From Enterobacteria phage VT2phi_272: DNA of 64,000 bases. The position numbers were made by a program. Positions 9,001 to 12,000 of the stretch are shown here, one piece after another (the stretch's first letter is position 1; each line of letters opens with the position of its first letter). The stretch lies in the sequence record NC_028656.1; one strand, given 5' to 3'.

Positions 9001-12000
9001 CTATTCCATATCGCTCGAATACAGCTAAATGGTTGCGCATAATCTCAGGCGTAAGCTCTTTGTAAGCATAAGCAAGAGGCTCTGATGCATTATCCGGCAC
9101 AACCGACGCAGGCGCGGCAGCATAAACAGGAATAACGTCCGCTTGCTCTTTATTGCTTTCATCCGTTAAAGCCCAGAATAATTTCCCGGCCGGATGTTTG
9201 AAAATATAAGCAACTGGTTCTGCACTATCAGCTTCGCGCCGCTTCTGTAGCTCTGCTGCCATCGCTCTCACGACTTCAACTGGTGCCCTTGCAGCAAACT
9301 CCATGTTGGTGATCAGCTCATTAAGAAATTGCTCGCTGGGATACTGTTTCTTATCGGTTATAGTGGTCATATCACTCTCCTTTGATGCGAATGCCAGCAA
9401 GCCAGTTTCTTATGCCGATATATTCAGCGTTCCTGAAACCGCTTTTTACATATATAAATGGCAATCGAAGATTGTGACCATTGACTGCTAGGTAATCTTT
9501 ACAACCCTGTTCGGTGAAACAGCAGGTAACGAATTCATCAATATCTTTCACAGCAACGCGCCGCCATTTTTCTGGTGGCTCCCGAAAGTTTTCATGAAGT
9601 AGTTCGAGACGACGACTTTGGAGTTTATTGGCTTCATTGCCATCTTCATCAACCCAGACAATCCGGTCATAGTCATAATCAGCATCAACAACGATTTCGC
9701 GCTTTTGATACACACAAAACATAGGATCTGACGTTATTCGATTATCCTGTGTTCGAATATTTTCACCGATGATGCCAAACGAATCTGGTGCAGATTTTGT
9801 CTGCATCTCTTCGATACGTTCAGCCATCGCAGCACACTCTTCAAAGTTGCTTAATGCTTTTCGCTCCCATTCGGCGCATTGTTTTTCCAGTTCTGCTATG
9901 TGCTTACTTCCATCCGAGATAACGCCCTCGTAATACTCACGCTGCTCGTTGAGTTTTGATTTTGCTGCTTCAAGCTCAACGCGCAGCTTCCCTACCGTTA
10001 GCGCAATATCCTCGTTCTCCTGGTCGCGGCGTTTGATGTATTGCTGGTTTCTTTCCCGTTCATCCAGCAGTGCCAGCGCAACATTTGGATTAAAGGCAGC
10101 AATAAATTCAGCGTTTGCGTAAGCCTGAGCATCTGTTTCAACCAGGCAGTTAACATGACATTCTGCAATCACGCCACCGGGTTCTCCTTTCCATTTTTGG
10201 CAAACAAAAACTCCTGTTAAATTGCCGTGTTGGTTAACAGATGTATGCCCTACGATGTAGCTTCCTTTAGTTGCTTTCTCTGCCTTTTCACGCAGTTCCT
10301 GATAGTCAATCTTGCTCACTGGTTGCCTCCTTTGTGGAGCTGCGCTGCGATGCACGAAAAAAAAGATTCCCGCGTATGACAGTTAAGAGCTGGTGCGAAA
10401 GCCGCGTTAGGAACGGCAGCATCACAGCCGTCATCGATATAGAGCGCAATTTTTTTCTCCAGGCGCGCTTTGGCTTCCTGCAACTGCATACCCCGGCACG
10501 TACGCGGGATATACTCAGCAATTTGAGCGATAGATTTTTCGTTCTGTTTAAACATGCTTCACCTCGACAGGCTTGATTGTGTCGATCAGCAGTCTGCGGC
10601 GCGTATTTTCTGCAAAGTGGCGGCGTCCGGTTTCTTTGTGGTAAAACTCGTTTTTGCCGACGACCCACATCCGCTCTGTCTGGTGAAGTTTTTTTACCTG
10701 CGGGCCGTCTTTGGTGATCACAATGCCGGTATGGGTTTTTACGATTGTCATGCCACTACCTCTTCGAATTTCAACTCCAATTGGTCACCCCAGATTTCAC
10801 ATGATTCGGAACACGAACCAGTATCAAACCGCTTGGCCAGCACCATCGCTTGATACAAATTGCTGTAGTCGCTGTCGGCATACATCCTGGCAATCCCGTC
10901 AAGCGTCAGGTGACCACGGTACATAACGTCTTTACCTGTTCTGCGATGACCATCCCTGACGTGTTTGCCTGTAACCAGTTCATTAAAAACCCGCATCAGA
11001 CCAGGTTCGTCTTTACATGCAAGCCCCAGCTTTTGCGTTGACTTTTTGATGCAGAAAACACAGTTCCCGAGGTGCTCCGGGATTTGCAAATCAAAAGGTT
11101 GTTTTCGCCACCACCGGATAACATCCGACTTATCAAAATCTGACAGTTCGGCAAGATACCGGACGCCCGGTTTCGGTTTCAGCCTACGGGGTTCGTCTGC
11201 ACGAATACCCAGCCACGTGATGTAGTTCCCTTGTCCGAAATGGTCATCGCAGTATTTTATGAAGGGGGTGAGTTTTAATCTGTCAGTGCAGAACGCGCCG
11301 CCGATGTATGGCGTGCCATATTTTTTTACCATGTCCATAAACGGTTTAAGCACCGGCATTCGCGTCTGAATATCCTTTGGTTCCCATTCCGTATAACCAT
11401 TTGGCTGCCCAAGCTCTGGATTTATATCGACCTGCAACACGGTTAGCGGAATATCCCAGAACTTCACAACCTCCCGAATAAACCGGTACGTCAGCGGGTG
11501 TTCACATCCCGTATCCATGAGTATGTAATGAACGTTTTCACCAGCTTTTCTGCGTTGCTCCATAAGGTGGACGAGGTACGCCGATGTCCGACCGCCTGAA
11601 AAACTCACAACATGATGAGTGCTCATTTCTTCGTCTCGTTACGGGGAGGGGGTTAAATAGGTGGTAAGCTGGAATTGCCGGATGTTTACCCGTGTCCGGG
11701 GTACGACCTCACGTTGCAGCGTACGAGAATAGACTATTGCTCAGTATCGTTTGATGTCGGCTGAGGATATTCGCCTTGCTCTTGTAACAGAGTTAGAAGA
11801 ATGGAAAACCCCTCACGATGTGATGATTGATGAGTGTCGATCCCGGAATGATTGATGTTGTTAAACTCCAACATCGTGCTCCTGGCGATAGCCTCAACGG
11901 TATTCCAGAATACTAATACATCTGTTTTCTGCTCTGTTTTATCAGCAACAGGAAGTTTGATATTTTGTTGACATTTATTAATGCAACCATTTTGAATATG

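Follow-up and report, generated by a model that had tools for sequence, protein, structure and literature searches.

The 'PAPS reductase' (phosphoadenosine phosphosulfate reductase) label has been carried into virome studies as evidence that phages boost the sulfur metabolism of their hosts. The 64,000-nucleotide stretch of Enterobacteria phage VT2phi_272 analyzed here (NC_028656.1; hereafter, the window) bears one such gene, an open reading frame (ORF) at 10748..11626 on the minus strand that encodes 292 amino acids (aa), and we asked what its product acts on and in what role. Neither the gene nor its superfamily label is new, and deposited phages have the identical sequence. We contribute negative tests for CysH and DndC, a five-cysteine signature, a link to DNA methyltransferases and a tie to an experiment in Vibrio in which a homologue has an anti-Dnd phenotype. 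Apart from the DndC test, these are the evidence that we present for a DNA-directed role in counter-defence.

A lambda NinC orthologue of an Stx2a-converting phage

According to the ORF listing, the gene starts with ATG and the N-terminus of its product reads MSTHHVVSFSGGRTSAYL (the same start is also given as MSTHHVVSFSGGRTS). In tblastn comparisons, residues 5-292 were 79.5% identical to the nin-region gene of lambda imm434, and the protein was 76% identical to 'NinC' of Erwinia phage Eho49, 56% identical to a Vibrio phage fusion protein and 29% identical to the 'ninC-like' gp42 of phage Chi. Therefore, the gene is an orthologue of lambda ninC, and some depositors' labels for it already read NinC. 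The 1.9 kb around it are 100% identical to the Shiga toxin 2a (Stx2a)-converting phages PA2, PA8, ArgO145 and phi346/phi349, which are classed as Sepvirinae, Oslovirus. Its product is thus the orthologous form of lambda NinC in an Stx2a-converting phage, an identity that a preliminary description of the locus had missed while placing the protein in the right family. Elsewhere in the window, antiterminator Q (26256-26738, +) precedes the Shiga toxin 2 A subunit with its ribosome-inactivating protein (RIP) domain (27525-28484, +) and an ORF of 89 aa where the B subunit would lie (28496-28765, +), which confirms that the window belongs to an Stx2-converting phage.

Orthologues all begin 3-6 residues ahead of VVSFSGGRTS, so that the ATG at 11626 is the true start. 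In RefSeq NC_028449.1 (phage PA2), the corresponding coding sequence (10691-11506; 9349-10164 in our locus L001) begins at Met22 and measures 816 nt vs 879 nt, and the PP-loop is consequently missing from the deposited PA2 protein; the GenBank version of the same phage names the gene NinC.

The nin region of VT2phi_272, as read by Pfam, consists of primase, DUF1367, NinG and Q, with no ninC in it; here, ninC has shifted out of that region into the operon of leftward early genes. A Dam gene that was expected in the nin slot was likewise rejected, since Pfam showed these four genes instead.

ninC is under strong purifying selection: the ratio of nonsynonymous to synonymous substitution rates (dN/dS) was 0.07-0.11 against alleles of 92-98% amino-acid identity, and the ORF was intact in 151 of 153 related loci. 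DNA at least 80% identical to ninC occurs in 552 of 5,426 complete E. coli genomes (about 10%). Among the 597 ninC-like places in these genomes, 74 lie on plasmid records (e.g., NZ_JBQRBI010000003.1, 72282-73151, a record of 96.5 kb), which suggests that phage-plasmids carry ninC too. The NinC family comprises 1,530 clusters of 50% identity at E<=1e-3; with the threshold at 1e-10 there are 787, and with it at 1e-30 there are 106.

Superfamily, predicted fold and conserved residues

Searched against Pfam, the protein scored 34.4 bits with PF01507 (PAPS_reduct), above the cut-off of 22.5 (E=2.9e-8), over residues 5-72 only; in relatives the match reaches about residue 145 (profile positions up to about 118 of 175). 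Among the PHROGs, phrog_424 matched the full length (residues 2-291, E=2e-92). In NCBIfam, the protein matched TilS weakly and failed the models for CysH (TIGR00434, 16.1 vs 165.1 bits), PAPS reductase (NF002537, 22.6 vs 154 bits) and the DndC equivalog (TIGR03183, 15.5 vs 290.4 bits), and it thus falls outside the curated CysH and DndC families. The best match in the PADLOC defence library was SspD (E=2.4e-14, residues 4-148 against profile positions 1-121 of 277); DndC gave E=6e-4 in PADLOC, and DndC and BrxP both lay at about 1e-3.

An AlphaFold2 model built from 32 homologues (predicted local distance difference test score, pLDDT, 87.2; predicted template modeling score, pTM, 0.84) was confident except for the C-terminal tail after about residue 270. 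When the model was compared with the PDB by Foldseek, the CysH and adenosine phosphosulfate (APS) reductase structures 6vpu, 1sur and 2goy came first (probability 1.00, E~1e-4), with template modeling (TM) scores of 0.39-0.52 over about 178 columns, followed by LarE and TtuA (5mkp, 5mko; probability >0.97) and also by NAD synthetase and GMP synthetase. By profile and predicted fold, the protein is a stand-alone enzyme of the PAPS-reductase superfamily with a PP-loop (adenine-nucleotide alpha-hydrolase) fold. This is the assignment made in the preliminary description, and it holds by the PF01507 score, the model and the Foldseek matches to CysH and APS reductase; the profile check proposed there led to this superfamily and not to an unrelated fold. 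In the model, the fold is shared over the N-terminal 180 residues or so only, the last 100 or so being family-specific.

Significant sequence alignment to the solved reductases covered only residues 3-67 approximately, or 4-97 with the family profile. Likewise, hhalign against a verified six-sequence reductase alignment returned residues 3-67 only, and phmmer of residues 92-216 against the PDB found no match. A global-mode hhalign alignment to the reductases was mis-threaded and was discarded. Verified CysH and APS-reductase sequences (2o8v and 2goy, via the PDB) end in KRECGLHEG or HKECGLHAGN; this ECGLH catalytic tail is absent from the NinC-like protein, which has GSCSESCEIWGD instead.

To assess conservation, we aligned 84 full-length members of the 50%-clustered library, among them lambda NinC and Chi gp42, with identities reaching down to 26%. 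The PP-loop SFSGGRTS (residues 8-15; 11582..11605, on the minus strand like all motifs below) is the predicted nucleotide/pyrophosphate-binding loop and aligns to the PP-loop region of APS/PAPS reductases; within S10-G-G-x-x-S15, both serines are about 96% conserved, G11 93% and G12 95%. The motif D38-T-G-C-E-H43 (11498..11515) is the counterpart of the LDTG..PET motif of sulfonucleotide reductases, being aligned to DTGrlHPETY of 2goy and DTGylFPETY of 6vpu/1sur, with T39 conserved at 98%, G40 at 94% and E42 at 100%. Further on lies G140-I-R-A-D-E-P-R-R148 (11183..11209), the 'Arg-loop' of the PAPS-reductase family, through which the PF01507 model runs in family members; G140, R142, D144 and R148 are 100% and E145 is 99% conserved.

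Five cysteines accompany these motifs. C113-T-D-R-L-K118 (11273..11290), with C113 and K118 both at 100%, offers a candidate iron-sulfur (Fe-S) ligand and a candidate substrate-binding lysine, and it resembles the C-C-G-I-R-K ligand motif of APS reductase (ECCGIRK in 2goy). The invariant CxxC of G187-N-C189-V-F-C192-I-K-K195 (11042..11068; G187, N188, C189 and K195 at 100%, C192 at 99%) provides further candidate ligands, its G-N-C-x-x-C resembling G-C-x-P-C-T of APS reductase (GCEPCT in 2goy). Finally, G-S-C272-S-E-S-C276-E in the C-terminal tail (10796..10819; both cysteines at 98%) may be a mobile catalytic or persulfide-carrying pair, reminiscent of the mobile ECGLH tail of (P)APS reductases; averaged by block, the pLDDT falls from 75 over residues 261-270 to 47 over 271-280, and residues 275-292 lie below 50. 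A sixth cysteine, C126, is invariant in the close clade only.

Profile-profile alignment gave no support for an equivalence of C113 and the CxxC to the Fe-S ligands of APS reductase, and because no significant alignment extends past about residue 67, we infer these ligands at the level of motifs. Three cysteines near the active site plus a mobile pair would be the pattern expected of a [4Fe-4S]-dependent, sulfur-handling PP-loop enzyme. The residues invariant throughout the family (PP-loop, K118, GxRxDExxR and the five cysteines) are all present in the VT2phi_272 protein, and the five cysteines together with the SGG-type PP-loop appear compatible with a DndC-like [4Fe-4S] cluster and ATP pyrophosphatase activity. 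Many members of the family (P0124, P0130, P0138-P0146 and others in our set) carry a variable, apparently helical insertion of 50-70 aa at the equivalent of R148-Y157, in which we found neither Cys or His nor a known DNA-binding or other recognizable motif.

Link to DNA adenine methyltransferases and a proposed role in counter-defence

Several relatives are fused to DNA methyltransferases. A Dam domain (PF05869) follows the NinC-like part in P0121, P0127, P0158, P0088 and P0109 and precedes it in P0125 and P0126, and P0128 is fused to a D12-class methyltransferase (PF02086); the fusion partners found were Dam, D12 and DUF551. A separate Dam or MT-A70 ORF overlaps a ninC-like gene at one of its ends in 15 loci in all: in 12 of them a Dam ORF stops precisely where ninC starts, in L115 a Dam ORF overlaps the ninC end, and in L117 and L118 an MT-A70 ORF overlaps the end of the ninC-like gene. 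DNA N6-adenine methyltransferases, either fused or coupled in translation, are the only recurrent association of the NinC family. Since three methyltransferase families occur on either side, fused or coupled, we place NinC in the arena of orphan phage methyltransferases, that is, on DNA and against restriction. The preliminary description had linked phage members of this superfamily to nucleic-acid modification rather than to sulfate assimilation, and these fusions and couplings, the failed CysH models and the missing ECGLH tail all speak for that link.

In the window, an intact gene for an MT-A70-family DNA adenine methyltransferase (3589..4215, minus strand; PF05063, E=1.3e-22; DPPW motif) lies in the leftward operon about 6.5 kb downstream of the ninC-like gene. 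Because genes of the MT-A70 family directly abut ninC-like genes in other phages, it is a possible functional associate. In phage PA2, its counterpart is split by an IS3-family insertion and annotated as two fragments flanking transposase genes.

A phenotype has been reported for one homologue. Dnd-resistant and Dnd-sensitive phages of Vibrio crassostreae differ in two genes, p0018, which encodes a 479-aa PAPS-reductase-Dam fusion, and p0019; with both put into the sensitive phage, which already had a 96%-identical Dam domain, plating on the Dnd+ host was full (Piel et al., bioRxiv 10.1101/2021.05.05.442762). The p0018 product is P0088 of our set, 56% identical to the VT2phi_272 protein with every invariant residue present. 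The p0019 product is a DUF6475 protein whose gene adjoins an O-like replication initiator, and we found no homologue of it in the window. DndFGH is not impaired by Dam methylation (PMC10470545). Since the sensitive phage shares the Dam domain and Dam methylation is harmless to DndFGH, the PAPS-reductase domain is the better anti-Dnd candidate. Within the Dnd and Ssp systems, DndC is an Fe-S ATP pyrophosphatase (PMC8569181), and DndC and SspD are PAPS-reductase-like sulfur-transfer components of DNA phosphorothioation (PMC12707154).

We propose, giving it somewhat less than an even chance, that the NinC-like protein is a stand-alone, probably Fe-S-dependent adenylating or sulfur-transfer enzyme that acts on DNA as counter-defence. 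The PP-loop would bind ATP and adenylate the substrate, as in DndC, SspD, TtuA and LarE, or alternatively would bind an adenylated sulfur compound. C113 and C189-x-x-C192 would hold a [4Fe-4S] cluster beside the active site, and C272-x-x-x-C276 on the mobile tail would deliver or accept sulfur, probably from host IscS. The substrate would be DNA, specifically replicating phage DNA early in infection, and the role, parallel to that of the orphan methyltransferases that travel with NinC, would lie in marking phage DNA, or in disturbing marking, against phosphorothioate-dependent restriction (Dnd, possibly Ssp), with no part in sulfate assimilation. We are doubtful about a more specific form of this proposal, in which each NinC-family protein would be, as a single polypeptide, an Fe-S-dependent DNA sulfur-modifying enzyme that needs no more than host IscS or host Dnd/Ssp parts, and a phosphorothioate or thio-base mark would make replicating phage DNA pass as 'self'.

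Several points weigh against a DNA-directed counter-defence enzyme. The fifth position of the PP-loop is Thr, where Asp is usual, and beyond about residue 67 the family is not significantly alignable to solved reductases. DndC and SspD depend on partners (DndD/E and SspB/C) that the phage does not encode. The methyltransferase fusions could reflect co-selection of two independent anti-restriction modules without a shared substrate. In the Vibrio transfer, two genes were moved, one of them a fusion, so that the effect is not pinned to the PAPS-reductase domain by itself (bioRxiv 10.1101/2021.05.05.442762). Lambda, which bears ninC, is still restricted by three Dnd systems, with an efficiency of plating of 0.016-0.3 (PMC10470545), which implies that NinC alone is not fully protective; this restriction is milder than the effect of up to 5 logs on lytic phages in the same study, a comparison that is confounded (PMC10470545). 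In favour of the proposal, on the other hand, lambda ninC is non-essential and can be dispensed with in laboratory K-12 (PMC10695390), which is what one would expect of a host-range gene. The preprint of the EVADES anti-defence catalogue mentions neither 'PAPS' nor phosphorothioation in its main text.

The established name of the gene points in another direction. It is annotated as phosphoadenosine phosphosulfate reductase in PHROG, RefSeq and PGAP, CysH and APS reductase have the closest solved folds, and in virome papers as late as 2026, phage 'PAPS reductase' is still taken for an auxiliary metabolic gene (AMG) of sulfur metabolism, with the admission that this is untested or puzzling (PMC13369170; bioRxiv 10.64898/2026.02.18.706556). 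A PAPS/APS reductase of this kind would boost host sulfate assimilation to cysteine in infection or lysogeny, which we regard as hardly credible for NinC. The scores reported above lie far under the curated CysH cut-offs, the alignment to reductases stops at about residue 67 with the catalytic tail absent, and the PP-loop is of the SGG type typical of ATP pyrophosphatases, whereas CysH has SSSFG. Moreover, the recurrent partners are DNA methyltransferases, the gene is expressed together with recombination genes from an early lytic operon, and E. coli already has cysH; the Bifidobacterium study itself finds the presence of the gene puzzling, there being no downstream pathway genes. If the substrate were RNA, the protein would be a thiolase or another tRNA-modifying PP-loop enzyme (like TtcA, TtuA or TilS) that alters host or phage tRNA, possibly to tune translation or to shield tRNAs from anticodon nucleases. 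Fe-S tRNA thiolases typically combine a PP-loop with a Cys + CxxC pattern, TtuA and LarE are among the Foldseek matches, NCBIfam shows the weak TilS match, and the lack of a DNA-handling partner would suit a small, self-sufficient RNA enzyme. We nevertheless consider this improbable, as the fusion and coupling partners are three DNA adenine methyltransferase families and never THUMP or PUA RNA-binding modules, the protein is nearest, by fold and by profile, to the PAPS-reductase branch and SspD rather than to the TtcA/TilS branch, and the sole phenotype of a homologue concerns a DNA restriction system.

The methyltransferase linkage fits equally well with a DNA modification other than phosphorothioation, in which a base carbonyl would be adenylated and replaced by sulfur or an amine, or a methyltransferase product would be processed, to yield a new post-replicative base modification that blocks several restriction systems. 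PP-loop enzymes such as GMP synthetase, TilS, ThiI and QueC adenylate carbonyl or carboxyl oxygens, and the absence of DndD/E- or SspB/C-like partners fits a chemistry without a nicking or ATPase partner. On the other hand, we know of no such base modification reported in lambda DNA despite decades of work, the sole homologue phenotype is specifically anti-Dnd, and none of these data identifies a base target; we judge this reading unlikely. The anti-Dnd phenotype also leaves modification and inhibition unseparated. Resembling the N-terminal half of SspD and DndC and having no partner of its own, the protein might instead be a decoy that binds host IscS, DndD/E or DndFGH and sequesters the defence system. 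Such an inhibitor seems very unlikely to us, because residues of catalytic type are 96-100% conserved down to 26% identity with a dN/dS of about 0.1, which is typical of an active enzyme rather than of a binding mimic, and because the family is common in hosts and phages without a known Dnd system and occurs in about a tenth of complete E. coli genomes. If NinC does act on DNA in counter-defence, many AMG interpretations need revision, with 'viral cysH', the gene given most often as a sulfur-metabolism AMG in virome surveys, read as a counter-defence DNA-modification gene; the 40-year-old lambda ORF ninC would gain a function, and ninC would bear on which E. coli lineages Stx phages can lysogenise.

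Operon, neighbours and likeness to known systems

The ninC-like gene sits within a long minus-strand run of early genes. Upstream of it on this strand are the genes for RecT (14835-15785), a YqaJ-type exonuclease (14149-14838), the single-stranded DNA-binding protein SSB (13562-14149), a phrog_204 protein (13139-13486) and a DUF2303 protein (12254-13075). The setting among recombination and early genes given in the preliminary description is thereby borne out, as are, by ORF listing and translation, the extent of the gene, its 292 residues and its SFSGGRTS loop. The two flanking ORFs described there as uncharacterised both exist and match only PHROG families of unknown function; we give them as context only. 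The 147-aa ORF upstream (11734..12177, minus strand; phrog_1363) is separated from the ninC-like gene by a gap of 107 nt, and the ATG of the 67-aa ORF downstream (10548..10751, minus strand; phrog_1226) overlaps the ninC stop (ATGA). Because its sequence has no Cys and no C-terminal GG, the 67-aa ORF does not encode a sulfur carrier of the TusA/ThiS type. Farther downstream lies an Ea22-like gene (9372-10355, minus strand). A 120-aa, GTG-started ORF (10306-10668, minus strand) runs out of frame across the 67-aa gene and an annotated gene of 79 aa (10316-10555); it seems to have arisen by chance and inflated one neighbour cluster of our locus survey. No promoter or terminator signal around the ninC-like gene rose above shuffle expectation, and we therefore assign the gene to the leftward early transcript. 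The window also contains a complete type II restriction-modification pair (18190-19143 and 19140-20609, both on the minus strand), located between these early genes and the repressor region and consisting of a BsuBI/PstI-type endonuclease (PF06616 + PF17728) and an Eco57I-like methylase (PF07669).

To survey the neighbours, we clustered the same-strand genes of the 153 related loci; viral-contig scans seeded with distant members gave few loci, so that the survey is biased toward enterobacterial prophages. Two contexts were found. In clades of 50-90% identity, the gene lies in the nin region, with NinB upstream and NinD/NinE/NinF downstream. In the clade of at least 90% identity it lies in the leftward early region, where its neighbours are interchangeable: DUF2303, a YfbR-like HD protein, HAD-PNKP, DUF968, or the 147-aa and 67-aa ORFs. 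The 67-aa ORF is downstream of ninC in only 14 of the 153 loci (cluster C10), and the 147-aa ORF is the upstream neighbour in 14 loci only (cluster C9), its place being taken in other alleles by the YfbR-like HD gene, among others. In 40 loci of the clade of at least 90% identity, the gene just upstream of ninC encodes the YfbR-like HD protein (5'-deoxynucleotidase family) and not the 147-aa ORF, an assignment that is weak at 24.0 bits, below the Pfam cut-off of 25.9; in L079, this gene overlaps the ninC start by 9 nt. In L093, an ORF of more than 900 aa upstream of NinB/NinC encodes a DnaB-like replicative helicase with an apparent large intein-like insertion.

Neighbours vary among the lambda, Erwinia, Vibrio and Chi phages and across the 153 loci, none of them being kept across both contexts. 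ninC is thus a stand-alone gene without a conserved protein partner, and lambda NinC had no two-hybrid partner (PMC3224144). The ParB-like or DndB-like partners suggested in the preliminary description did not appear among the neighbours in the window, the fusion proteins or the neighbour clusters of the 153 loci. Neither dndA/B/D/E nor BREX partner genes lie beside the ninC-like gene in the window or in the related loci, and PADLOC matched no sspA/B/C in the neighbouring ORFs, the neighbour clusters being NinB, NinD, NinG, DUF2303, the HD protein and others.

Compared with known proteins, the VT2phi_272 product is closest to lambda NinC (Orf290, lambdap64), with which it shares 79.5% identity over 288 residues, the same N-terminus before VVSFSGGRTS, all conserved motifs and the PHROG; its 292 aa compare with 290-296 aa. 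The positions differ, lambda ninC lying between ninB and ninD in the rightward nin region and the VT2phi_272 gene in the pL-type operon of leftward early genes. The p0018 protein of Vibrio phages 44E38.1/36E38.1 is 56% identical over 95% of the query and shares the five cysteines and the C-terminal GSCSESCE; its surroundings are nin-like, with homologues of NinG and DUF1367. Unlike the stand-alone VT2phi_272 protein, p0018 has a C-terminal Dam domain, and it was tried only jointly with p0019.

With DndC, SspD and BrxP, the NinC-like protein has the superfamily and the SGG-type PP-loop in common. It is much shorter than DndC (about 450-480 aa) and BrxP (about 780 aa), and its likeness to SspD is confined to its own N-terminal half. 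The CysH and APS reductases (1sur, 2o8v, 6vpu, 2goy) are the closest solved folds, aligning in the PP-loop and the DTG..PET region, and the set of cysteines, with one on a mobile C-terminal tail in the model, appears similar to that of APS reductase. The genomic associations set the two groups apart: those of NinC are DNA enzymes, not sulfur-assimilation genes.

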